From NCBI RefSeq assembly GCF_003600355.1, contig NZ_CP032416.1, forward strand, positions 306,183 to 330,182: DNA of 24,000 nt, in the 5' to 3' direction. This document shows, one piece after another, positions 746 to 21,448 of this stretch. The notes beneath the pieces were generated by a model that was given only the letters and a program-made list of their open reading frames with translations, was not told the DNA's origin and ran no database searches. The stretch's first letter is position 1. Each line of letters begins with the position of its first letter. Made by a program: the position numbers and the translations under genes. The DNA is from Clostridium fermenticellae (lineage in GTDB: Bacteria > Bacillota > Clostridia > Clostridiales > Clostridiaceae).

Positions 746-1018
746 TTTTATTTATAGGGTTTGTAATTACAAGCTTAAATTATACTTCAGTTGACATTTC
801 CAAAATTCGTCACCTAAAAAATTTCTAGTAAGTCTAAGTTTGTATTTATAAAAATCTAAGCAGATTTTATAAACTCGCAGACTCAAACATATAAAATCTA
901 CTAAGATTTTCAAAAATGCTTCACTAAAACTTACTAAAAAATTTTTTAATGTGCCTACATTTTGGAAATGTCAGCTTACGTATAACTTAATCCTGGAATT
1001 ACAAACCCCATAAATAAA
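746..1018 (+). repeat. Long-hairpin intergenic repeat, subfamily 1, full-length copy A (about 273 bp imperfect palindrome)
   Basis: Left end TTTATTTATAGGGTTTGTAATTACAAGCTTAA pairs with right end TTAATCCTGGAATTACAAACCCCATAAATAAA. The inner box TGACATTTCCAAAAT pairs with ATTTTGGAAATGTCA. The central apex AAACTCGCAGACTCAAAC (871..888) sits exactly at the midpoint. The element is collinear with 12946..13209, with roughly nine of ten positions identical by eye. No ORF. Confidence 0.9.
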
Positions 1019-7498: not shown

Positions 7499-8026
7499 AT
7501 GGCATCGCAACAAATAATTTTTGCCGGTTTTGGAGGACAGGGTATATTATCAATGGGAAAATTCTTAGCATATGCAGGGATGGATGCTAACTTAAATGTT
7601 TCATGGCTTCCATCATACGGACCTGAAATGAGAGGAGGAACTGCCAACTGTTCTGTAATACTCACGGAAGATGCGATAGGTTCACCTATAGTTACAATGG
7701 CTAACAGCATAGTTGTAATGAACAGGCCGTCACTTGAAAAATTTGAAGATAAGCTTGAACCTAACGGAGTTGTGATCTTGGATTCTGATTTGGTTGATGT
7801 AATGCCTAAGAGAAAAGATGTAAAGGTAATAGCAATACCTGCCCAGTCTGTAGCTGAAAAAATAGGAAGCAAAAAGATTGCAAATATGGTTCTTTTAGGA
7901 GCACTAGTTAAGCAGACAAACATAGTTTCAATGGATTTGCTCTTAAGTGCACTAAAAGCTCACGGAAAAGAGAAGTTCTTTGAGTCAAATAAAGAAGCAG
8001 TTTTAAAAGGAACTGAATACGTATAG
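7499..8026 (+). CDS. 2-oxoacid:ferredoxin oxidoreductase gamma subunit
   Basis: FAGFGGQGILSMG motif. 175 aa. The start is 1 nt after the beta subunit stop. Confidence 0.9.
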   Translation: MASQQIIFAGFGGQGILSMGKFLAYAGMDANLNVSWLPSYGPEMRGGTANCSVILTEDAIGSPIVTMANSIVVMNRPSLEKFEDKLEPNGVVILDSDLVDVMPKRKDVKVIAIPAQSVAEKIGSKKIANMVLLGALVKQTNIVSMDLLLSALKAHGKEKFFESNKEAVLKGTEYV

Positions 8027-8115
8027 GGTTATACTTAAGTAAAAGTTAATTTACCCTTCGGGACGTGTCGCCAAAGTTCAGTACTATAAGTACTTTCGTA
8101 TTGGTAACATGTCCC
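8024..8115 (+). repeat. Long-hairpin repeat, subfamily 2, centre-deleted derivative; probable terminator hairpin of the oxidoreductase operon
   Basis: TAGGGTTATACTTAAGTAAAAGTTAATTTACCCTTCGGGACGTGTCGCCAAAGTTCAGTACTATAAGTAC is collinear with the left arm of copy C (14591..). The imperfect hairpin GGGACGTGTCGCCAA...TTGGTAACATGTCCC (8060..8115) is followed by TTT. The gamma subunit TAG stop (8024..8026) forms the first bases of the element. Confidence 0.6.
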
Positions 8116-11068: not shown

Positions 11069-12943
11069 ATGGATGTGAGTTTTATGGATTTTACCCGGGG
11101 GAGCAGACAGAAAAATGTATGGGATATGATATTTATAGTTAAAATCTTATCACTGCTTTTTTGTGGGATTATAGTTTGCAGTCAGTTCTTTATGAAAAAT
11201 AAATATATAAACTCGACGGATCTAAAAAATTATAATATGGGAACCTTTGGATTTATGGTATGTGTGACATTGGCAATATTTTGCTTATGGATATTAATTT
11301 TAAAAAACATGGATAAATGGAAAGGAAAAAAAGTGTTCGTTACTATAGAAGATATATGTTTTATGATTATATTCTCAGCTATAGTATTAAAAACACAACC
11401 TTACTCTGATCAGTACAATTTTATATTTTTATTTATCATAATAATATCGACTATACAATCCGGTAAGAAGTATGGAATGACATTAGCATTTATGTCATCT
11501 GTCATAATATTTCTTGTAGACATACTTTCTAAGAAGAGTCCGCTTGATGCAAATACTTATTTTGAAAGTGATATGATTTTGTCATCTATATTTATGGTAA
11601 TATCATGGATAATCGGCCATTATGTGGAGATTGAAAATAGAAATATAAGAGAAAAAAATATTCAGCTCTCCAGATTAAACAGTAAATTGAATAAACAAAA
11701 GGAACACCGCAGAAATATAGAGAAAATACTTTTAAAGAATGAGAAATGTTATAACTTATTGATAGATAACTCAAATGAGGTAATATTTATTCATGATTTT
11801 AACAGAATAATATTTGGAAATGAAAGTGCTGCAAAAATTGTTGGACTTTCTACGCCGGATGATCTGGGTGGAAGATCTATATTCGAATTTATACCTAAGG
11901 ATGAAAGAGAAGCTATAAGAAAAAAGTTCTCGAGGTTATACAGAGAGCACGAGATAACACTTGTGTTTAACCAAAAAATAGTTAATAAGGATTCTACTGT
12001 AAGTTTAGTTGAAAATTCATCTACTTATATAATGTATGATGGAAGACCGGCAATACTTACTATAATTCATGATATAACACCCGAAGAAGAAGTCAAAAAG
12101 CTTAAACACGATGTTGAAGAAAATGTTAAACTTTTAAATGAAAGCAGGGAATTCAATAAACTTATTACTCAATTCTTTACTAATATATCGCATGAACTTA
12201 AGACACCTTTAAATGTGATATTTTCAGCAATACAGATGCTTTCTATATATAATTCGGAAAGTAGAAATGATAAGATGGAAAAATATATAACGGTTGTGAA
12301 ACACAATTGTTATAGACTGATGAAACTAATAAATAATTTACTTGATGTTACTAAACTTGATTCCGGATTTTTAAAATTAGGACTTAAAAATTATGATATA
12401 GTGAGTGTTATTGAGGAAATATCATTATCTGTTGGTCCTTATTTAAAAGCAAAGAATATGTCGATAACCTTTGACACCAATGTTGAGGAAAAGATAATGG
12501 CTTTTGATTTAGAAAAACTCCAAAGAATAATTTTAAATATAATATCAAATGCAGTTAAGTTTACAAACAAAGGCGGAAGCATATTTATAAATTTAACTGA
12601 CAAGAAAGATGTAATGTGCATAAGCATAAGGGATACGGGGATAGGAATACCAAAAGATAAATTAGATGTCATATTTGAAAGATTTGGACAAGTTGATAAG
12701 ACCTTAAATAGAAATTGTGAGGGAAGCGGAATGGGACTTTATCTTGTAAAGTCTTTTGTAAATATGCATGGCGGTAAAATACATGTTAAAAGTAAAGTTG
12801 GAATAGGAACAGAGTTCATTATAGAACTTCCGGTAGTTATATCAGATGAAAGTGACGTGTCCGGCAGAACACTGTGCGAAGACAACATTGAAAAGGTAAG
12901 TATAGAGTTTTCTGATATATACTATGATACAGCTGTAAATTAA
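11069..12943 (+). CDS. Orphan sensor histidine kinase: 6-TM N-terminal domain, PAS, HisKA, HATPase_c
   Basis: Six hydrophobic helices in about aa 20-190. PAS-like region about aa 225-335 (NLLIDNSNEVIFIHDF...ILTIIHDITPEEE). H-box FFTNISHELKTPLN (His codon 12191..12193). N/G boxes NIISNAVKFT, DTGIGIP and GSGMGL. The start is ambiguous (ATG 11069, GTG 11075 or ATG 11084). No response regulator lies adjacent. Confidence 0.88.
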   Translation: MDVSFMDFTRGSRQKNVWDMIFIVKILSLLFCGIIVCSQFFMKNKYINSTDLKNYNMGTFGFMVCVTLAIFCLWILILKNMDKWKGKKVFVTIEDICFMIIFSAIVLKTQPYSDQYNFIFLFIIIISTIQSGKKYGMTLAFMSSVIIFLVDILSKKSPLDANTYFESDMILSSIFMVISWIIGHYVEIENRNIREKNIQLSRLNSKLNKQKEHRRNIEKILLKNEKCYNLLIDNSNEVIFIHDFNRIIFGNESAAKIVGLSTPDDLGGRSIFEFIPKDEREAIRKKFSRLYREHEITLVFNQKIVNKDSTVSLVENSSTYIMYDGRPAILTIIHDITPEEEVKKLKHDVEENVKLLNESREFNKLITQFFTNISHELKTPLNVIFSAIQMLSIYNSESRNDKMEKYITVVKHNCYRLMKLINNLLDVTKLDSGFLKLGLKNYDIVSVIEEISLSVGPYLKAKNMSITFDTNVEEKIMAFDLEKLQRIILNIISNAVKFTNKGGSIFINLTDKKDVMCISIRDTGIGIPKDKLDVIFERFGQVDKTLNRNCEGSGMGLYLVKSFVNMHGGKIHVKSKVGIGTEFIIELPVVISDESDVSGRTLCEDNIEKVSIEFSDIYYDTAVN

Positions 12944-12945
12944 AT

Positions 12946-13209
12946 ATATATAGGGTTTGTAATTTCAAGCTTAAGTTATACTCCAGCTGACATTTCCAAA
13001 ATTCATCACGTAAAAAATTTCTAGTAAGTCTAAGTTCGTATTTATAAAAATCTAAGCAGATTTTATAAACTCGCAGGCTCAAACATATAAAATCTACTAA
13101 GATTTTCAAAAATACTTCACTAAGACTTATCACAAAACTTTTTAATGTGCCTACATTTTGGAAGTGTCAGCTTATGCATAACTTAAGCTTGGAATTACAA
13201 ACCCTATAT
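12946..13209 (+). repeat. Long-hairpin intergenic repeat, subfamily 1, full-length copy B
   Basis: TATATAGGGTTTGTAATTTCAAGCTTAAG...CTTAAGCTTGGAATTACAAACCCTATAT. Apex AAACTCGCAGGCTCAAAC at 13067..13084, the exact midpoint. It has the same orientation and order as copy A and begins 3 nt after the kinase stop codon. Confidence 0.9.
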
Positions 13210-13222
13210 GCATTACTGGTAT

Positions 13223-13274
13223 GGGGCTTATAAATAAAAGCTTAAGTTGTACGTAAACTTAGACTTGTAAACCC
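13223..13274 (+). repeat. Miniature (termini-only) hairpin derivative of subfamily 1
   Basis: GGGGCTTATAAATAAAAGCTTAAGTTGTACGTAAACTTAGACTTGTAAACCC. The left half resembles the left terminus AGGGTTTGTAATTACAAGCTTAAATTATAC and the right half resembles ...CTTGGAATTACAAACCC. It folds on itself. Confidence 0.6.
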
Positions 13275-13495
13275 TAATATTTTTAGATAAAGGTTTATTT
13301 ATTCTTTTGTATAAACTAACTTTAAAGTTAATTCATAAACCCTGGCTTGAAGAAAAAAATAAATTGCCCGCTAGAACTTGACACAAACGAGAGAAACGCA
13401 GAGGTGGAAAAAATCTTAAAATTAATATATAATATGATAATATAGTGTATAATGTTGAGATATGTTAAACTAATATAATTATAGGAGGTTTTCAT

Positions 13496-14548
13496 ATGAT
13501 AAGGAAAAGGAAATGTTTGAGTTCTGCACTTGCAGCACTTGTTCTTTCTGCTGCATTTTCGCTTGGTACAACTGTACAAGCGGCAGATGTAACCAGGACT
13601 GATGGTGGTGCAGGTGGAAGAATAGGAACAGCGGATAGTGTTGCTCTAAGTGCATTTGGAACAGCTAAGAATGTAATACTTGTAAATGGATATGGATACG
13701 CTGATGCTGTAAGTGCAACACCTCTTGCAAAACAGTTAAATGCACCTATACTTTTGACGGCAGGAGGTACACTTGAATCAGAGGTAGCCTCAACAATAAA
13801 AAGTCTTGGTGCAACAAATGTATACATAGTTGGAGGAACGGGAGTTGTATCTGATGCAATTGAAAATACATTAAAATCATCATATACCGTACAGCGTATA
13901 GCAGGGGTTACAGATACCACAAGAATGGGAACAAACTCAGAGGTTGCTAAAAAAGTATTAAGTCTAAGCGGACAAAAAACAGCAGTACTTGTAAATGGAC
14001 AAGATGGATATGCAGATGCACTGTCAGTTGCATCACTTGCTGCGCAAAAGGGATACCCGGTTTTATTTTCAACATCACAGAATATAGCATCTGTAGTTAA
14101 AGATGTCGTAAATTCAAATTCACTTAGCATATTAGCTGTAGGTGGAAACGCAGTTTTACCTCAATCTGTTGTAGATAGTGTTTCAGGTAAAAAAATAACT
14201 CAAAATACTGCAGATAGATTTGCAACTAATCTTGCGGTCTTAGATTATTTTAAAAATAATGGTGGAATAGATTTCAGTAATGTTTACATAGCAGCAGGCG
14301 GAGCAGAAGAGGATCAATTTGCAGATGCATTAGTTGCTTCAGCCGCTGCAGCAAAGACAGGATCACCACTAGTACTTACAGGACTTGGAGCAAATACAGA
14401 TCAGATAGCAGCAGCACAGGATTATATAGCATCTAATGCCAGCGAGGATTCAAAGCTTATCGTTGTTGGAGGAACAGCTTCTGTATCTGATGCTATACTA
14501 GAACAACTTAAAAATTCTGACACACTTGAAGTTATAGGAATAGAATAA
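13496..14548 (+). CDS. Secreted cell-wall-binding protein made only of a signal peptide plus three CWB2 repeats
   Basis: Signal peptide MIRKRKCLSSALAALVLSAAFSLGTTVQA|AD. Three CWB2 (PF04122-type) modules, each with ...(D)R..T...V... plus V.LVNG.GYADA(L/V)S...LA......P(I/V)L(L/F). Strong RBS AGGAGG. No additional effector domain. Confidence 0.88.
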   Translation: MIRKRKCLSSALAALVLSAAFSLGTTVQAADVTRTDGGAGGRIGTADSVALSAFGTAKNVILVNGYGYADAVSATPLAKQLNAPILLTAGGTLESEVASTIKSLGATNVYIVGGTGVVSDAIENTLKSSYTVQRIAGVTDTTRMGTNSEVAKKVLSLSGQKTAVLVNGQDGYADALSVASLAAQKGYPVLFSTSQNIASVVKDVVNSNSLSILAVGGNAVLPQSVVDSVSGKKITQNTADRFATNLAVLDYFKNNGGIDFSNVYIAAGGAEEDQFADALVASAAAAKTGSPLVLTGLGANTDQIAAAQDYIASNASEDSKLIVVGGTASVSDAILEQLKNSDTLEVIGIE

Positions 14549-14552
14549 TATG

Positions 14553-14586
14553 AAATCAACGTATTTGTATGCGTTGATTTTTTATA
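14553..14586 (+). terminator. Rho-independent terminator of the CWB2-only gene
   Basis: AAATCAACG (14553..14561) pairs with CGTTGATTT (14572..14580), followed by a TTTTTTA tail. Confidence 0.85.
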
Positions 14587-14590
14587 TTAT

Positions 14591-14849
14591 GGGGTTTATA
14601 AGTTAAAAAGTTAGTTCATCCCCCGGGAGATACTGCCAAAATCTGGTACTATAAATGCTTTTAGTAATTCTAAAGCCCGGTATTTTGAAAATCTAATAAA
14701 GATTGATAAACTCGCTATGCTCAAACAGTATCAATCTTTATATATTTTTTAAAATACCAGGCTAAGAATTATAATAAAAGTATTTAATGTACCTATATTT
14801 TGGCAGTACCTCCCTCAGGTATAAATTAACCTTTAAAATTACGACTCCC
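14591..14849 (+). repeat. Long-hairpin intergenic repeat, subfamily 2, full-length copy C (about 259 bp)
   Basis: GGGAGATACTGCCAAAATCTGGTAC pairs with GTACCTATATTTTGGCAGTACCTCCC. GCTTTTAGTAATTCTAAAGCCCGGTATTTT pairs with AAAATACCAGGCTAAGAATTATAATAAAAGTA. Apex AAACTCGCTATGCTCAAAC at 14708..14726, the exact midpoint. It has the same architecture as copies A and B but a diverged sequence. Confidence 0.85.
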
Positions 14850-15170
14850 TATAACTATATAGGAGTTAAGCTTAGATCCGTAAACCTTATAATTATAAAT
14901 TATATTTTGTCATTTTTTTATATTTAAAGAGGATATTTAAAATAAATGTAGAATAATATAAAAGAATATTTTTATGTAAATTTTATTAAAATTAACTTTA
15001 TGGTTTTATATACATTAAAATCCTTAAATTACTAGTGACAAAGGTATGGAAAATCTAAAAAAACTGTTGTATAATTTATTTATAACTTAATATTGTTAAA
15101 TAATATAGTTTTTTCTCGCATAAATATATTTATGAATATTAAACATACTATAGAAGTAAATCCATATATA

Positions 15171-15179
15171 TGATATAAT
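15171..15179 (+). promoter_or_regulatory. Candidate distal promoter upstream of the S-layer gene
   Basis: Extended -10 TGaTATAAT. It is followed by the perfect 9-bp hairpin GTAAATAAA-TGGGATG-TTTATTTAC at about 15203..15227. Confidence 0.35.
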
Positions 15180-15294
15180 AAAGTTTGAATTTGAAATGGA
15201 AGTAAATAAATGGGATGTTTATTTACATAATTTAAAATTCGGAGAAAAAAATATAAAAATTTATATAATATACTGGAAAAGTGTTGTACAAGTA

Positions 15295-15337
15295 TGGTAT
15301 AATAAATTTTGTTTCTATATCATGGAATTACCATGAT
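15295..15337 (+). promoter_or_regulatory. Candidate proximal promoter plus 5'-proximal stem-loop of a long S-layer mRNA leader
   Basis: Extended -10 TGgTATAAT at 15295..15303. The perfect stem ATCATGG-AATTA-CCATGAT at 15319..15337 would lie within about 10 nt of the predicted 5' end. The leader would then be about 185 nt up to the strong RBS GAGGAGGG before the ATG at 15495. Confidence 0.4.
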
Positions 15338-15494
15338 GATTTTGAATTGACAAGCTTAACATTTTAAGTCAAATTGCTATTTAAAATACATTAAGTAAAA
15401 AATGTATTTTTAAATATTTAAAAATGTATATATTAAAAAATATATATAACTAAGAATTCAATTAAATTCACTTAATCGAGGAGGGTATTACAAT

Positions 15495-18400
15495 ATGAGT
15501 AAAAAAGGTACAAAGGCACTTGCTAGTGCTACACTTTTGTCCTTAGTTTTAACTACAGCTTTATCAGCTGGTCCAGTTAAAGCTGCAGCAACAGGACAAA
15601 CTACAAGAATCGCTGGTGCTGATAGATATGCAACAGCAGCAGCAGTTGCTACAAAAGACGGAAAGACTAATGACAATGTAGTTTTAGTATCAGGTGAAGG
15701 ATATGCAGATGCTGTAAGCGGATCTGTATTAGCAAAGACAATAGATGCACCAATACTATTAACTCAATCAAACACTCTTAGTGCAGATACTACAAAAGCT
15801 TTAAATACATTAAAACCAAAGAACATATATGTTATAGGTGGAACAGCTTCAGTATCCAAGTCAATAAGAGATCAACTAAAAGATGGCGGATATAACCTAG
15901 TAGAATTAGGTGGAGCAAACAGATATGAAACTAACGTAGCAGTTGCTAATGAATTAGTTAAAAATCATGGAATAAGTGCTGACAAAGTAATGGTTGTTGG
16001 CGGAGAAGGTTTCTCTGATGCTCTTTCAGTAGCACCAGTTGCAGCTGCAAAAGGACAAATCCTTTTACTTGGAAGCAATAATCAGAATGACATGAAATCA
16101 GTTATTGATTTCGTAAATACAAATAAATCAAATGCTACAGTAGTTGGAACAAGCAATATAATGAATGATTCAATACTAAAAGCTTTAGGTGTAAATCCAT
16201 CCACAAGAATAAACGGTGGAGCAGACAGATTTGCAACTAACTTAAATGTATTAAAAGCATTCAGCAGCGATTTAAAAGCTGACAGCATTTATGTTGCAAA
16301 TGCAACAGCAGATGATGGATATGCAGATGCATTAGTTGCTTCAGCATTAGCTGGAAAAACAGCATCACCATTAATATTGGTTGATACTGATGATTCATCA
16401 GCTACATCAAATGCTTTAAGTTACTACAACAGTGAAAAAACAGATTCTACAAGCACTTACGTTGTAGGTGGAGAAGGAGTTATTTCAAAAGATTTATATG
16501 TAAAATTTGGTGGAACTGATAACTCTACACCTGGTACAGGTGAATCTAGTGTTAAATCAATAGATTCAGTTGATTTGAATCAGATTAAAATTGTGTTTGG
16601 TACTGACGTTGATAGTGATTCAGCTGAAGCTATTGGAAATTATAAAGTAGATGGTACAACTTTAACTAATAAGGATGCAGTAGCACAGTTACAAGATGAT
16701 AATAGAACTGTTTTGATTACATTAAAACAACCCAAAGAACAAAATAAATCATATACAGTTTCAGTTAAGAGTGGAATTTTAACTGCAGATAAGACTGGTA
16801 ATATTGATTCTAAAGAACAGTCTATTACATTTGGTGATACAGCTGCTCCAACAGTGACTTCTGTTACTCCACGTGGAGGCAATAAATTAACTGTTAAGTT
16901 CTCAGAACCAATAAAAGTGCCTGTAAAGAGTCTTACTAAATTTGGTGATAATAATGATGATGTTATTGCTAAGGATGGTAAATATAATCCAGCAACTGAT
17001 TTTACATCGAAGTTTAAGATTAATGGACAGAACATTGCAAGTTTTGGACTTAGTTCAACAAATACGGTTACTAAGTATGCTGTCCCAACAACTACAGGGA
17101 CATCAGTTTGGGCAGATGAAGTAGATTTTTATTTTTCATCACAGCTTCCTTCAGGAAGTAATACATTGGAAATTAATGATGGAACTTCAGATGCTAATTC
17201 CAGCAATAATAGTGGTGTGTTAGTGGATTCTGCTGGCTATATATTCAAAGATTCGACTCAAAGTTTTACTATAGATTCAGTTACTAGTAAACCTACAGTT
17301 AAATCGGTTGATGCCGAGGCAGATGGAACAATCTGGGTAAGATTTGATAGACCTATGGATGATGTTACAGCAAGAAATAATACTAACTATGAAGTAAATA
17401 GTGAATCAATAAGTTCAGGTAATAATAAATATGGAAAAGGAACTATTAGTTTAAAGGAAGGAGATACTGCAGTTAAAATAACTGGATTAACCTCATTACC
17501 TTTTGGATCCAATTCAATATATATTAAGAACAATGTGAAAGATGCTTATGGGAATACAGTGGATGATGATACAAGAAAATCATTTGATGTTGAAAAAGAT
17601 GAAACTAAGCCAACAGTCAATAGCGTAACTATGGTTGATAGTGAGACTATTAGAATTGTATTTAGTAAGGATATAAATAAAGATTATGCTGAGAACCATA
17701 GTAACTACACTTTGAAGGATTCAGATGGTGTAGATATAACTGATCGTATAAGACTTATAAAACCAGCTAAAATGAGTGATGTAGATAGTGATACTCAGAC
17801 TGATATAAATAATAGTAGTGATAATGACAATGATAGTGTATGGGATATAAAGATGAAAAAGCATGATCCAAACAATCAAAATGATGATTGGAGATTAACA
17901 GGGTCTAAGTATACTTTAACTATCAAAAATTTAGTTGATACTACATTCAAACAAAATGTTATGGATGATAAAACAGTAACATTAAATGGTTCTGATGATG
18001 TATCACCTAGATTGACAGGAGCTTATAGAAAAACTAAAGATGCTGACAGCAATGATAATAGTTATAAGCATAAGGTTGTTTTAACTTTTTCAGAAGCAAT
18101 GGATAGCAGTACTTTAAACGATATAAGTAACTATCAATATAAAAATGGAGCTAATGATAGTAAAACTCTTCCTTCGGGAACAACTGCTACTCCAGGAAAT
18201 GATAATAAGAGTGTAACATTAGAATTCCCAACGAGTTATTATATATATGATGGCAAGGACACTACTACTACAGTAGACAGTAGTTCTACCCTTATTAAAG
18301 ATTTAGACAATGATGATTTAGTAAAAGGTATTCTTGCTTCTGGATTAAAAGATGTTGCTGGAAATTCTATAGATTCATTTAATAATAGTTTTGGTGTTAC

Positions 18401-19298
18401 TTATGACAATACTAGTAGTTCTTTTGCATATAAGAATAGTACTTATACTATGGAGAATTCAGGAGATGACTTGTTAGTAAAAGTTCAGTTTGCAAGTGCT
18501 TTGGATTCAAATAGTCTTATACCGGAAAACTTCAAAGTAGCAGGACAGAAACCTGATGCTGTATATATGGATGGATCCAATGTTGTATTAAGATTCAATA
18601 AAGGCACAGCTTCAGATAAGAAAGCTAAAGCATTATATAATTTACCAGATGAACAAGCGAATAAAGAAGATCCTCTTGACAGATGTGATGTTGTTAGACA
18701 TGCAGGTGCCAATGCTGTGCTTTCTGTAAATGGAAATGTTAAAGACATAACTGGTGCTAGTATTTCAAATGCAACTACTGGTGGAGCTATAAGTGTTGAT
18801 CCTAGTGATTCTAAGTGGTATACTGTTTCTAATAATATTGGACATGACAGTACAGCTAATAAGGATGTTCAAGTATATTCATATAATGCAGCTCCAAAAA
18901 CTACTTCTGATTATTGGTATGCAACAGCTGATCAGAATATTGCTTCAGGAACAAGCCAAGCTGCTATTGTATTAACTTTCGATACTCAACTTGATCAAGT
19001 TTATTCTAGTGTTTCACCTGATAACTTTAGGTTTAGTGCTTCAAATGGTGAATTAATACCTTCATCTATGAAGATTAAAGGAAATTCATTAGTATTCTTA
19101 TTTAATAATGATGATGTTAAGAAGGCTAATTCTATTAATGTATCTGTTAAGAATGATGATTCATTAAAATTAAAATCATTAAGAGATGCTAACGGTGGAA
19201 ATGCTACTTATGTTCCAACTGATAGTGATACAGGTACAAGAAATGTTAAAGTTATTTCATCTTCTTCAACATTTATAAATGACTTATTAAATAACTAA
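15495..19298 (+). CDS. Large CWB2-anchored surface (S-layer-type) protein, 1267 aa
   Basis: Signal peptide MSKKGTKALASATLLSLVLTTALSAGPVKA|AA. Three N-terminal CWB2 repeats (RIAGADRYATAAAVA...YADAVSGSVLAKTIDAPILL; GGANRYETNVAVA...FSDALSVAPVAAAKGQILLL; GGADRFATNLNVL...YADALVASALAGKTASPLILV). After these come at least 6 tandem beta-sandwich-like modules starting (A/K)PTV.SV and containing x-NY-x motifs (GNYKVDG, TNYEVNS, SNYTLKD, SNYQYKN). Strong RBS and a strong terminator. Confidence 0.9.
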   Translation: MSKKGTKALASATLLSLVLTTALSAGPVKAAATGQTTRIAGADRYATAAAVATKDGKTNDNVVLVSGEGYADAVSGSVLAKTIDAPILLTQSNTLSADTTKALNTLKPKNIYVIGGTASVSKSIRDQLKDGGYNLVELGGANRYETNVAVANELVKNHGISADKVMVVGGEGFSDALSVAPVAAAKGQILLLGSNNQNDMKSVIDFVNTNKSNATVVGTSNIMNDSILKALGVNPSTRINGGADRFATNLNVLKAFSSDLKADSIYVANATADDGYADALVASALAGKTASPLILVDTDDSSATSNALSYYNSEKTDSTSTYVVGGEGVISKDLYVKFGGTDNSTPGTGESSVKSIDSVDLNQIKIVFGTDVDSDSAEAIGNYKVDGTTLTNKDAVAQLQDDNRTVLITLKQPKEQNKSYTVSVKSGILTADKTGNIDSKEQSITFGDTAAPTVTSVTPRGGNKLTVKFSEPIKVPVKSLTKFGDNNDDVIAKDGKYNPATDFTSKFKINGQNIASFGLSSTNTVTKYAVPTTTGTSVWADEVDFYFSSQLPSGSNTLEINDGTSDANSSNNSGVLVDSAGYIFKDSTQSFTIDSVTSKPTVKSVDAEADGTIWVRFDRPMDDVTARNNTNYEVNSESISSGNNKYGKGTISLKEGDTAVKITGLTSLPFGSNSIYIKNNVKDAYGNTVDDDTRKSFDVEKDETKPTVNSVTMVDSETIRIVFSKDINKDYAENHSNYTLKDSDGVDITDRIRLIKPAKMSDVDSDTQTDINNSSDNDNDSVWDIKMKKHDPNNQNDDWRLTGSKYTLTIKNLVDTTFKQNVMDDKTVTLNGSDDVSPRLTGAYRKTKDADSNDNSYKHKVVLTFSEAMDSSTLNDISNYQYKNGANDSKTLPSGTTATPGNDNKSVTLEFPTSYYIYDGKDTTTTVDSSSTLIKDLDNDDLVKGILASGLKDVAGNSIDSFNNSFGVTYDNTSSSFAYKNSTYTMENSGDDLLVKVQFASALDSNSLIPENFKVAGQKPDAVYMDGSNVVLRFNKGTASDKKAKALYNLPDEQANKEDPLDRCDVVRHAGANAVLSVNGNVKDITGASISNATTGGAISVDPSDSKWYTVSNNIGHDSTANKDVQVYSYNAAPKTTSDYWYATADQNIASGTSQAAIVLTFDTQLDQVYSSVSPDNFRFSASNGELIPSSMKIKGNSLVFLFNNDDVKKANSINVSVKNDDSLKLKSLRDANGGNATYVPTDSDTGTRNVKVISSSSTFINDLLNN

Positions 19299-21274: not shown

Positions 21275-21341
21275 CAATAACCTAAACTGAGGAATAAAAT
21301 TTAAAAAAAGTTTTGGTATCAGGGTTTAAAAATATAATAAA

Positions 21342-21448
21342 TATAGGATTTACAAGTTTAAGCTTAAACTTACTAGAAATTTTTTACGTGACGTATTTTA
21401 GAAATCCCTGCCGGAGCATAAGTTACGCTTTCATTTGCAACCCTATAT
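21342..21448 (-). repeat. Long-hairpin repeat, subfamily 1, internally deleted copy D (inverted orientation); probable ldh terminator hairpin
   Basis: The minus strand reads ATATAGGGTTGCAAATGAAAGCGTAACTTATGCTCCGGCAGGGATTTCTAAAATACGTCACGTAAAAAATTTCTAGTAAGTTTAAGCTTAAACTTGTAAATCCTATA. This is collinear with the left arm of copy B as far as TTCTAGTAAGT, then joins directly to a right terminus. It begins 1-2 nt after the ldh stop. Confidence 0.7.

Follow-up and report, generated by a model that had tools for sequence, protein, structure and literature searches.

A 26-nt tip is conserved across at least six phyla on hairpins that are otherwise unrelated, and was not found in Rfam or in the searchable literature. 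One of its carriers is copy C, a palindromic element in the window (the whole 24-kb stretch of DNA that was analysed), which may be a MITE-like, TA-flanked, non-autonomous repeat belonging to a superfamily that is set by the tip and is recognised as folded single-stranded DNA (probability roughly 0.45). As a rule, an interspersed hairpin repeat is restricted to one lineage and is defined by its ends, whereas the constrained part of this one is a 26-nt tip that extends from Firmicutes to a CPR bacterium. Such a pattern implies a conserved partner, which could be a protein or some activity that is self-contained. A mobilising enzyme in this role would make the tip part of a structure-guided system working across phyla, and an RNA core at the tip would amount to a new widespread RNA class. 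The 26-nt motif, its covariance model and the two candidate strands provide a testable handle on these possibilities.

Copy C and related copies in the window

Copy C, with TA/TAT flanks on both sides, occupies 14588..14853 of the forward strand, as indicated by its sequence, its fold and its alignment with two other copies, A and B. As the sequence-only reading of this DNA had claimed, its G...C core (14591-14849) is a 259-bp imperfect palindrome that has the centre of the apex, TATG (14716-14719), at its midpoint. Folded as a single strand, positions 14585-14855 reach -100 kcal/mol, compared with -44 +/- 4.4 kcal/mol for shuffled sequences (z = -12.8; 0 of 200 shuffles equal or better). The ends read TATGGGG...CTCCCTATA, the inner box GCCAAAAT (14635-14642) pairs with ATTTTGGC (14797-14804), and the midpoint reads ATAAACTCGC-TATG-CTCAAACAGTAT, with the same tip in copies A and B. 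Every sequence quoted in that earlier reading was found exactly in the window.

In the predicted fold, the 5' strand of the apical stem (TAAAGATTG plus AT, 14697..14707, forward strand) pairs with the 3' strand (AT plus CAATCTTTA, 14730..14740, forward strand), enclosing the conserved apex core (14708..14729, forward strand). The core agrees with the pan-phylum consensus ATAAACTCGCTNYGCTCAAACAGTAT at every specified position, and scores 68.2 bits (E = 5.6e-13) with the covariance model. Its internal loop, composed of AAACTC (14708-14713) and TCAAACAG(T) (14721-14729), surrounds a mini-helix of GC (14714-14715) with GC (14719-14720) that has a TAT triloop (14716-14718). What had been described as an unpaired loop is conserved in sequence as claimed, but it holds this 2-bp helix with its 3-nt loop, which covaries or is lengthened in relatives.

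An intrinsic terminator of the CWB2 gene (13496-14548) lies outside the element at 14552..14589 on the forward strand (terminator scan; DNA fold z = -7.6), and copy C begins directly after its T-run. The scan placed this terminator at 14552-14581, upstream of copy C, and found none in the element or in copy B. An intrinsic terminator consists of a short GC-rich stem with a T-run behind it, and an identity of the element as one was rejected.

Copy A (749..1012, forward strand; apex 869-892), identified by fold (z = -13.7) and alignment, is located in a divergent promoter region. Its apex centre, GC-AGA-C, is one base shorter, and a G-to-A change breaks the mini-helix. Copy B (12945..13208, forward strand; apex 13065-13088), identified by alignment, is 92% identical to A, with 92% identity in the arms as well, and starts 2 nt past the stop codon of a histidine-kinase gene (11069-12943). 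A mechanically called 98-aa ORF (12837-13133, reverse strand) overlaps copy B. With 68.2 bits versus 55.4 bits for B and 49.5 bits for A, it is copy C and not A or B that lies nearest to the pan-phylum consensus. The apices of A and C are identical at 19 of 22 positions (86%) and the arms at 150 of 242 (62%), in agreement with the claim that most of the arm sequence differs. Folds and alignment bear out that the closing stem changed on both sides and still pairs (AGATTTTAT/ATAAAATCT in A, TAAAGATTGAT/ATCAATCTTTA in C). The pattern AAACTCGC-N3-4-CTCAAAC has three matches in the window, all on the forward strand, versus 0.00 expected from 100 shuffles. The right-arm block TTTAATGTACCTATATTTTGG (14783..14803, forward strand), which includes the partner of the GCCAAAAT box, has a sliding identity of 86% between A and C, and related (T)YAAATGYA blocks are present in other Clostridium families.

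The three apex-bearing copies are accompanied by at least three apex-less remnants within the 24 kb. A C-like remnant at 8024..8115 (forward strand; repeat family D10), from which an internal deletion took the apex, has a left arm 71% identical to 14606-14661 and a residual hairpin (z = -2.9). A short A/B-like terminal fragment (TATGGGGCTTATAAA...GTAAACCCTAATA) lies beside copy B at 13220..13290 (forward strand; inverted repeats I7 and I12), and an apex-less fragment at 21329..21443 (reverse strand; inverted repeats I1 and I2) is 76-77% complementary to the left arms of A and B; neither has a significant fold. The features of a MITE are present in size (259-266 bp, where MITEs stay below about 600 bp), in coding content (no ORF of at least 80 aa in C or A), in terminal inverted repeats (TAT(A/G)GGG...CCCTATA) that are paired over the whole length, and in dispersed copies and subfamilies (three full copies and at least three remnants here, and related families in other Clostridium genomes). 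An IS200/IS605-derived PATE, which has dissimilar subterminal hairpins at its two ends, lacks inverted repeats and is oriented with the replication strand, was rejected: the window copies form palindromes from end to end, and the orientation of copies with respect to GC skew is 54:52.

The apex in other phyla

The same apex is carried by hairpins in Bacillota, Bacteroidota, Pseudomonadota, Elusimicrobiota, Melainabacteria, and Patescibacteria. Its pattern matched at least 120 loci in one-genome-per-species contigs, with about 35 chance matches estimated for the whole collection. Among the pattern matches listed, 107 distinct apex regions have complementary flanks and 8 matches were rejected; the Bacillota among them are Clostridium, Tepidibacter, Alkaliphilus, Lachnospiraceae, and Selenomonas, and the other carriers are many Bacteroidota, Neisseria, Pasteurellaceae, Neptuniibacter, Ectothiorhodospiraceae, Elusimicrobia, Melainabacteria, and Nomurabacteria. 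The apex is also found on replicons of Ralstonia, Variovorax, Aureibacter, Parabacteroides, and Butyrivibrio. The matches are intergenic and, among those listed, often multi-copy and often at contig ends; the family breaks MAG assemblies, and may be used to annotate such breaks.

The hairpins of most copies have 60-120 enclosing pairs around a tip with the consensus AT-AAACTC-GC-TNY-GC-TCAAACAG-TAT. The mini-helix has compensatory variants, and in relatives it is found as GCC/GGC, as GT/AC or with a 6-bp extension. The 8-bp stem homologous to the apical stem of copy C covaries in 108 copies, in which 91.9% of it is paired versus 42-57% in slid controls, and each variable pair is found in all four Watson-Crick types. 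Covariation across many aligned copies, which the sequence-only reading had anticipated, is strong (score 0.78 versus 0.15 in shuffles), and its expectation of an apex conserved beyond the arms held as well: copies found via their arms keep the apex with one to three changes. Compensatory change alone is no proof of selection on the fold, because DNA-level processes can also fix two-sided changes in a palindrome. The data support the conclusion that the tip is constrained in sequence and the adjacent stem is free to change while pairing, of which the two diverged copies in the window give a first hint. Apart from the tip, only a few short arm blocks are constrained in sequence, and the arms mainly must pair.

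Covariance model scores range from 31 to 78 bits in the family, and the window copies (49-68 bits) fall within this range. The clostridial families are alignable along their arms, and the apex alone is invariant. The ends of the element differ between lineages: they read TA-TAGGG...CCCTA-TA in the window copies and ClosX, and TA-TGACAG...CTGTCA-TA in Lachnospiraceae. TA flanks A, B, C, and the majority of the ClosX and Lachnospiraceae copies on either side; being palindromic, it could belong to the inverted repeat.

Several searches set bounds on the distribution of the apex. Its pattern had no match in 2.9 million viral contigs, and a blastn comparison of copy C with phage and plasmid collections gave no match. 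The apex consensus is absent from 5,426 E. coli genomes, which excludes an origin in a universal rRNA or tRNA segment, as far as E. coli represents these. An arm-based pattern for the window's own family yielded two chance matches in metagenomes and nothing else. At the gathering threshold of Rfam 15, whose families include hammerhead, pistol, twister, 6S, and HEARO, the window had no matches and 118 kb of loci had only two tRNAs; at permissive thresholds, the window and loci from four phyla gave only generic miRNA-like hairpin noise. Searches of the accessible literature by sequence string and by concept found no published description of the apex module.

Gram-negative relatives possess a further, pseudoknot-like domain. 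In Bacteroidota, Ralstonia, Pasteurellaceae, Ectothiorhodospiraceae, Elusimicrobia, and Melainabacteria, a polypyrimidine/polypurine hairpin always precedes the apex hairpin on its 5' side and shares its strand, and the loop of this 5' hairpin is complementary to a tail that follows an A-run (CTTGAT/ATCAAG, CTTGAC/GTCAAG, CTTGAA/TTCAAG, GTGGCC/GGCCAC, TCACC/GGTGA, CGTG/CACG). Loop-tail complementarity of at least 5 nt was found in 28 of 35 copies, versus a mean of 19.8 and a maximum of 24 in 200 permutations. The helix that links the pseudoknot hairpin to the apex domain ranges from 8 to more than 100 bp. The 5' hairpin is absent upstream of A, B, and C, and was not detected in Firmicute loci.

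The proposal that a folded tip is under selection is upheld by a constrained tip and a stem that is free to change if paired, in 108 copies from at least six phyla, but the RAYT-like protein or transposase suggested with it did not emerge: all-versus-all blastp of the ORFs of the 120 loci listed revealed no RAYT, transposase or other gene that is consistently linked, and there is no RAYT gene, which REP/REPIN repeats usually flank, among the large ORFs of the window. The neighbours that recur in the 120 loci listed resemble, by eye, pilins, sugar epimerases/dehydrogenases, and HU-like proteins; the flanking genes in Pasteurellaceae, also read by eye, are unrelated. Neither a parent element with the same ends nor solitary termini flanking a parent IS were found in the 120 loci listed and the window. 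A search for empty sites in the loci and in Ralstonia megaplasmids returned nothing but occupied orthologues, or loci so diverged that the ends could not be defined. The copies are oriented almost at random with respect to the genes beside them, the asymmetric pseudoknot-type copies included (11:10 and 12:10 against flanking genes). Gene 3' ends face the element more than 5' ends do (convergent 18 versus divergent 8; for the non-pseudoknot type, 69 versus 48). A promoter scan of the element found nothing above chance.

The folded molecule and the rival explanations

Copy C would, on the preferred explanation, be a non-coding interspersed repeat, MITE-like in this genome and located in AT-rich intergenic DNA, with subfamilies and decayed remnants, and membership of its superfamily would be defined by the tip rather than by the ends. 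The element would act in single-stranded, folded form, as a hairpin that is extruded from the duplex or exposed as single-stranded DNA, and its tip may be the recognition determinant for a widely distributed trans-acting protein that propagates or maintains it. Recognition of the tip on a folded single strand by a trans-acting factor is probable. We infer that DNA is more likely than RNA to be the folded molecule, that a protein recognises it, and that it is mobile by transposition.

The apical stem contains 5 G-U pairs, compared with 594 Watson-Crick pairs and 10 A-C oppositions. Isolated mismatches in the arms show a weak asymmetry (19 G-U versus 36 A-C, p = 0.03; by clusters 7 versus 17, p = 0.06), and the quoted strand shows no enrichment of wobble pairs. 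Because G-U pairs are rare and orientation is near random, an RNA lacks its usual signature. The apex centre GCTNCGC, present in 72 of the 108 copies, is GCGNAGC on the opposite strand, where another 25 copies, including copy C (GCATAGC), have GCANAGC. The accessible part of a published account describes GCGNAGC as an extra-stable DNA mini-hairpin motif (PMC13037366). On that strand, the tip may stack compactly, with a GCGNAGC/GCANAGC mini-hairpin resting on two tandem G.A pairs and then T.G and T.T pairs, and on the quoted strand it would be an open C/A-rich loop. Nearest-neighbour DNA folding gives the two tip strands equal energy, so the stacked-tip model rests on the known behaviour of the motif.

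Some observations sit uneasily with mobile folded DNA. Differing ends between lineages would be unusual if one enzyme family moved all copies, and the pseudoknot-like domain of the Gram-negative relatives, an arrangement better known from RNA, counts against DNA. It is conceivable, although rather unlikely, that the functional form is RNA: a mobile or multi-copy non-coding RNA gene would specify a long hairpin RNA whose internal loop and mini-hairpin serve as a protein site, tertiary contact or catalytic core, joined in Gram-negative bacteria by a 5' pseudoknotted hairpin. Such an RNA would account for the loop-tail pairing of that hairpin (28 of 35 copies, versus no more than 24 in permutations), for some 16 near-invariant loop nucleotides among freely covarying helices, as in ribozyme or protein-binding cores, and for a layout of hairpin, A-rich linker, loop-pairing strand, helix, internal loop, and short hairpin that resembles the pistol ribozyme. 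However, the strand that has the pseudoknot in a sterically sensible order shows no excess of G-U pairs, orientation to flanking genes is random even for the asymmetric pseudoknot type, there is no promoter-like signal above chance, and no Rfam model scores, ribozymes included. The variable length of the inter-domain helix argues against a fixed tertiary fold, and the Firmicute copies, those of the window included, have no pseudoknot hairpin. It is also possible, if doubtful, that the apex and the covarying pseudoknot-like hairpin together constitute an undescribed, phylum-spanning selfish structured nucleic acid, the loop being the catalytic or priming/recognition core of a self-processing RNA or of enzyme-handled single-stranded DNA, and not that of a mere transposase-binding MITE.

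Another reading is that a host use keeps the repeat, as a hairpin at gene 3' ends (terminator or stabiliser) or as a site for a nucleoid or topology protein of the kind proposed for REP/BIME, ERIC, and Correia repeats, with the apex as the host factor's site; we consider this quite improbable. Copies B and C are directly 3' of forward-strand genes, B without any other terminator, 3' ends predominate among the gene ends that face the element, across loci and for the non-pseudoknot type, and a hairpin of 100 kcal/mol would block 3' exonucleases, an effect that is established for REP elements. Nevertheless, copy C sits behind a good intrinsic terminator, copy A is in a divergent promoter region, and a T-run is lacking in the element itself. 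The stem alone would suffice for a terminator or stabiliser, which leaves the conservation of a 26-nt tip across phyla unexplained, and we know of no single nucleoid protein of the IHF or Fis kind (as in REP and Correia repeats) that is common to all of the carrier phyla. An ordinary young MITE family, in which A, B, and C inherited the apex from one ancestor and the stems have drifted neutrally within a palindrome, would fit the window taken by itself: A and C can be aligned along their arms, and the right-arm block TTTAATGTRCCTAYATTTTGG (14783-14803) equals the apex at 86% identity, so that the claimed conservation of the apex was decided by other genomes and not within the window. Those genomes make it very improbable. 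It is contradicted by the apex on hairpins with unalignable arms in at least six phyla, by pattern matches far above chance and nearly all with complementary flanks, by the strong covariation statistics, and by the retention of the apex in copies found via their arms.

Comparison with known systems

Several candidate identities were rejected. An integron attC site, in which paired R''/R' core sites (RYYYAAC/GTTRRRY) form the hairpin foot and the cassette adjoins an integron, does not fit, as CTTAAC in the relatives faces an unpaired TA rather than GTTAAG, and there is no integron context. The nick site CTTGATA of pC194/pUB110 matches the Bacteroidota pseudoknot loop only. Likenesses to NusB boxA, RfaH ops, and the hammerhead core, to IHF, Fis, and dif/Xer sites, to sigma-70, sigma-E, and sigma-54 promoters, and to T7 promoter and terminator motifs are too weak or at odds with the variable positions. 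A resemblance to Tc1-like terminal repeats we take to be a lead only.

In the pistol ribozyme, a hairpin loop pairs with a downstream strand, followed by a helix, an internal loop and a short closing hairpin. The Gram-negative relatives are similar in whole-loop pairing after an A-rich linker, helix, conserved internal loop, and short hairpin, but differ in having no Rfam ribozyme match and a helix of 8 to more than 100 bp, and the window copies lack the pseudoknot hairpin. The GCGNAGC mini-hairpin is known from Hirao and co-workers. In the accessible account (PMC13037366), it corresponds to the motif found at the exact tip, on the opposite strand, in 72 of 108 copies of the present element. 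It is a physico-chemical curiosity at scattered natural sites, however, and is not known as the tip of a repeat family.

The MRSC-65-2 motif, one of the mobile/repeat sequence candidates of the Breaker laboratory, resembles the element, as far as the accessible part of the paper describes it, in its long single stem, strong covariation, presence in many phyla, inconsistent orientation, possible relevance as DNA, and multiple copies, of which there are dozens per genome (PMC11109978). It has a repeated UYCCGG (PMC11109978) that is absent from this element, and the apex strings are absent from the accessible supplement of that paper.

REP/REPIN repeats are likewise non-autonomous and hairpin-forming, and accessible parts of the literature propose that a RAYT (TnpA-REP) tyrosine transposase, a trans-acting enzyme present in single copy, recognises them in the form of folded single-stranded DNA (PMC2817692, PMC3337134, PMC8266576). 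REPs are described, in the accessible text, as GC-rich sequences of 20-40 nt with a GTAG or CGTC tag at the foot (PMC3733652). The conserved part of a REPIN is in its arms, whereas here it is in the tip of AT-rich hairpins of 200-330 nt; identity with REP/REPIN was rejected on the AT-rich arms, the lack of a GTAG/CGTC tag at the foot, and the conservation at the tip.

The palindromic MITEs, such as Correia/CREE of Neisseria, ERIC/IRU of enterobacteria, and RUP of pneumococcus, resemble copy C and its relatives in being intergenic, multi-copy sequences of 100-300 bp with no ORF, with long hairpin potential, several subfamilies, and decayed copies. Correia and RUP are flanked by TA on both sides, as is this element. 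Terminal inverted repeats define Correia, ERIC, and RUP, each of which is bound to a genus or family, whereas in the present superfamily the ends vary and the centre is kept across phyla.

Hairpin copies of the window and their gene neighbours

The window is low in G+C content (26-39%), and its + strand holds most of its genes. Pfam matches comprise an asparaginase, an aminotransferase, a phosphoglucosamine-type mutase, a PAS histidine kinase, two CWB2 (cell-wall-binding repeat 2) proteins, a TPP enzyme and a lactate dehydrogenase. Composition and gene content are those of a Clostridium-like chromosome; no tRNA or Rfam family was found in the window at curated thresholds. The non-coding palindromic repeat is present on the + strand as copies A (749-1012), B (12945-13208) and C (14588-14853). 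The sequence at 14591-14849 is exactly as quoted by the sequence-only reading, and its palindrome is borne out: as a single strand, 14585-14855 folds into one long hairpin of -100 kcal/mol, versus -44 +/- 4.4 kcal/mol in dinucleotide shuffles (z = -12.8). Copy A shares this architecture, forming a comparable long hairpin (z = -13.7). The string AAACTCGC-N3-4-CTCAAAC of the apex, the conserved 26-nt centre of the hairpin, occurs three times in the window, always on the + strand, with 0.00 occurrences expected. Copies A and B are 92% identical; their identity to copy C is 62-63% across the arms and 86-91% over the apex, and the closing stem has changed on both sides between copies yet is paired in every one. 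Because a right-arm block (14783-14803) is conserved as well as the apex when compared within the window, these three copies alone do not prove that the tip is special.

Apex-less remnants are located at 8024-8115, 13220-13290 and 21329-21443. A repeat finder detected an inverted repeat of copy A (729-806 / 959-1036, 79%) that is ~20 nt longer than the part common with copy B; this outer extension (729-748 and 1013-1036) either arose by chance, the DNA being AT-rich, or marks an older palindrome into which copy A inserted. Copy B starts 2 nt past the point where the PAS histidine-kinase gene ends in its stop codon (12943-12949); the interval 12850-13520 yielded no terminator, and transcripts of that gene probably continue into copy B. 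The CWB2 proteins are encoded by adjoining genes at 13496-19298 (350 + 1267 aa, with a Big_5 domain in the second). Direct-repeat families D3, D4, D6, D13 and D17 of the repeat scan lie inside both genes, and are probably CWB2 protein repeats unrelated to the hairpin element. One CWB2 gene has a strong intrinsic terminator (14552-14589), and copy C begins right where the T-run of this terminator ends. GC-rich hairpins are also found upstream of the element in Ralstonia (L121) and at locus L011, and terminator hairpins may be preferred insertion neighbours.

Spread, covariation and anatomy of the apex

GTDB representatives (one genome per species, 596 Gb) contain the pattern ATAAACTCGC-N3-4-CTCAAACA in at least 120 loci, where by our own estimate ~35 would be expected by chance for the whole collection (18 specified bases in 596 Gb). 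Among the matches listed, 107 distinct apex regions have at least 6/8 complementary bases on each side, and 8 matches were rejected. The carriers among these listed matches include Firmicutes (several Clostridium species, Tepidibacter, Alkaliphilus, Lachnospiraceae, Selenomonas), many Bacteroidota (including Flectobacillus, Saprospiraceae, Bacteroidales and Flavobacteriia), Neisseria, Pasteurellaceae, Neptuniibacter, Marinobacterium, Ectothiorhodospiraceae, Elusimicrobia, one melainabacterium and one Nomurabacteria (CPR) genome. Multiple matches per genome are common, and contig ends are frequent. Searching plasmids and chromids extended the carriers to Aureibacter, Ralstonia, Variovorax, Parabacteroides, Butyrivibrio and Chondrinema; there were no matches in 2.9 million viral contigs or in E. 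coli genomes. Several positions left free in the search pattern are conserved (T after CGC, Y-G before CTC, (G)TAT after ACA), and 60-120 enclosing pairs lie below the apex in the hairpins of most copies. In the uncultured bacterium binchicken_co113_13, the whole element occurs in tandem in the same orientation (L011:2475-3056 and L094:2718-3211, 508 and 420 bp apart). One copy on Aureibacter plasmid pAT6 (L122:1400-1670), between cas5d and cas7d of a type I-D CRISPR-Cas operon, is an example of insertion inside an operon.

In an alignment of 108 distinct apex regions (A2), including C, A and B, 91.9% of cells of the 8-bp apex-closing stem are paired, a percentage slightly inflated by the inclusion rule of 6/8 pairs, which removed only 8 matches. 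AU, UA, GC and CG all occur at each variable pair, and pairing falls to 42-57% when the 3' partner is shifted by 1-3 columns. The covariation score of the stem is 0.78, versus 0.15 in column shuffles, none of 500 of which reached 0.78. Copies found by their arms alone keep the apex with 1-3 changes. The observation of the sequence-only reading, a conserved loop on a compensatory stem, is confirmed, and is much stronger than its basis could show.

A covariance model built from A2 adds about a dozen variant copies in the loci, and in the window recognizes exactly three modules, C (68.2 bits), B (55.4) and A (49.5), which are themselves 3 of its 108 training sequences; the next-best match (21.7 bits) is the reverse strand of C. 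Copy C had been taken for a diverged subfamily, but its score, the highest of the three, places it nearest the pan-phylum consensus. The centre of A and B is one base short, with an additional G-to-A change in A. It reads GC-AGG-C, or GC-AGA-C in A (879-881, 13075-13077), and a GC/GC mini-helix with a 3-nt loop is impossible there. Copies A and B may be decaying; C has the canonical tip.

The apex centre is GC-TNY-GC, with variants GCC-TNC-GGC (a compensatory insertion in three Bacteroidota loci), GT-TTC-AC (C-G to T-A in two loci) and GC-ACAT-TTT-ATGT-GC (an expanded centre in one copy). These variants show GC/GC to be a real distal mini-helix, so that AAACTC and TCAAACAG face each other across an internal loop as its strands; the supposed unpaired loop is conserved as claimed, but not featureless. 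Its halves are near mirror images in all copies (AAACTCGC / CGCTCAAA), so that facing bases are mostly identical and lack Watson-Crick pairing on the quoted strand, the one written out originally. On the opposite strand the centre is GCGNAGC in 72 and GCANAGC in 25 of the 108 regions (GCATAGC in copy C). On that strand GCGNAGC sits between T-GA-G and C-GA-G, a setting where tandem sheared G.A pairs arise, and further out lie T.G and T.T oppositions. GCGNAGC has been published as an unusually stable DNA mini-hairpin motif (PMC13037366). Since the nearest-neighbour model, which gives about -8 kcal/mol for the tip of either strand, cannot score GCGNAGC or sheared G.A motifs, the stacked tip on the opposite strand is one that we infer. 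Directly below the apical stem, an asymmetric internal loop of UA versus CUUAAC (A2 columns 16-18 and 58-65; L017, L042, L065) recurs in Clostridium, Tepidibacter and Bacteroidota, and appears flipped, with CUUAAC lying 5', in Pasteurellaceae and further down the same hairpins; at this place the window copies have CTAAG/CTAAG (A and B) or CTAA/TATA (C).

Folded strand and pseudoknot-like domain

Oppositions in the apical stem, read on the quoted strand, are 594 Watson-Crick, 5 G.T and 10 A.C. Isolated arm mismatches (three pairs flanking each side, de-duplicated within families) number 19 G.T versus 36 A.C (binomial p = 0.03), or 7 versus 17 by family (p = 0.06). RNA folding selected on the quoted strand should produce the opposite, G.T above A.C, and the mild A.C excess favours, if anywhere, the opposite strand as the folded one. 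Orientation is near random relative to flanking genes (++ 23, -- 18, convergent 18, divergent 8) and to GC skew (54:52), and a promoter scan detected no promoter-like signal above chance. Taken together, they make a cis-acting RNA less likely than a palindrome at the DNA level that has a degree of strand polarity.

Gram-negative relatives (Bacteroidota, Ralstonia, Pasteurellaceae, Ectothiorhodospiraceae, Elusimicrobia and Melainabacteria) possess a pseudoknot-like domain: a 9-14-bp hairpin that invariably precedes the apex hairpin on its 5' side, on the same strand, and pairs a polypyrimidine 5' strand with a polypurine 3' one; after it come an A/G-rich run and then a stretch complementary to its loop (L009, L011, L017, L036, L042, L109, L121:1395-1440, L122:1425-1466 and ~30 more loci). 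Loop and tail covary (CTTGAT/ATCAAG, CTTGAC/GTCAAG, CTTGAA/TTCAAG, GTGGCC/GGCCAC, TCACC/GGTGA, CGTG/CACG), and exact complements of at least 5 nt are present in 28 of 35 distinct copies, versus a mean of 19.8 and a maximum of 24 in 200 permutations. This asymmetric domain reveals the superfamily to be polar and to fold as a single strand. The purine tail repeats the 3' strand of the hairpin (CAAAGAAAG twice, for example), which makes a triple helix or alternative pairing possible.

The claim that copy C reflects selection on a folded nucleic acid is partly supported, in that a constrained tip sits on a freely covarying stem. Our leading interpretation, to which we assign a probability of roughly 45%, is that the element is a MITE-like, non-autonomous repeat from a superfamily that spans phyla, and that its tip would be recognized on a folded single strand, likelier DNA than RNA, by a putative trans factor. 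The pseudoknot-like domain is the main argument that the element is instead an RNA module, a less likely alternative. Three points limit this argument: the helix between domain and apex varies from 8 to >100 bp, copies with the domain are still randomly oriented with respect to genes, and window copies A, B and C lack it. Exaptation by the host as a 3'-end or nucleoid element is more doubtful still, and an ordinary MITE is very improbable.

Ends, mobility and comparison with known systems

Several features are those of a selfish repeat: several subfamilies and apex-less remnants in the window, AT-rich intergenic sites, and relatives elsewhere in Clostridium, present as multi-copy families whose arms can be aligned (blocks TTAAnTTATAC, TTTCCAA, YTAAGA and AAATGYA) and in which only the apex is invariant. 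The ends are TA|TAGGG...CCCTA|TA in A, B, C and most copies of ClosX, a related Clostridium family, TA|TGACAG...CTGTCA|TA in Lachnospiraceae, TGAAGCTGTTTAAAC... in Flectobacillus and GATGTTACGCA... in Neisseria. The TA flanks are compatible with a TA target like that of IS630/Tc1-type MITEs, but TA is itself palindromic, and no empty site was found for the element. The terminal 25 nt of Clostridium families (such as AGGGTGCTAGGCCAAAAGTTAAC; left ends of L003 and L100, window 749-790) presumably resemble the Tc1 terminal repeat CAGTGCTGGCCAAAAAG, which, with the TA flanks, hints at an IS630/Tc1-type transposase as a lead for these families. The loci have no consistently linked gene, and no parent element bearing the same ends was seen in them; recurrent neighbours, judged by eye, encode pilin-, sugar-nucleotide-enzyme- and HU-like proteins, and Pasteurellaceae copies apparently lie between unrelated housekeeping genes.

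The element is not a REP, as it lacks the GTAG/CGTC tag and is not a short GC-rich palindrome; nor does it have the defining features of IS200/IS605 PATEs, attC sites or intrinsic terminators, and no Rfam family matched it. Literature searches by sequence string and concept found no description of the apex, which is only provisionally undescribed because most subscription journals lay outside the search. Within the C. fermenticellae genome its behaviour is MITE-like; with REPIN/RAYT systems the element shares a hairpin form that is probably recognized as a folded strand. The nearest published concept found is the 'mobile/repeat sequence candidates' of the Breaker laboratory, among them MRSC-65-2, which has a long covarying stem, dozens of copies per genome and a distribution over many phyla, is possibly relevant as DNA, and differs from this element by its UYCCGG mark (PMC11109978).
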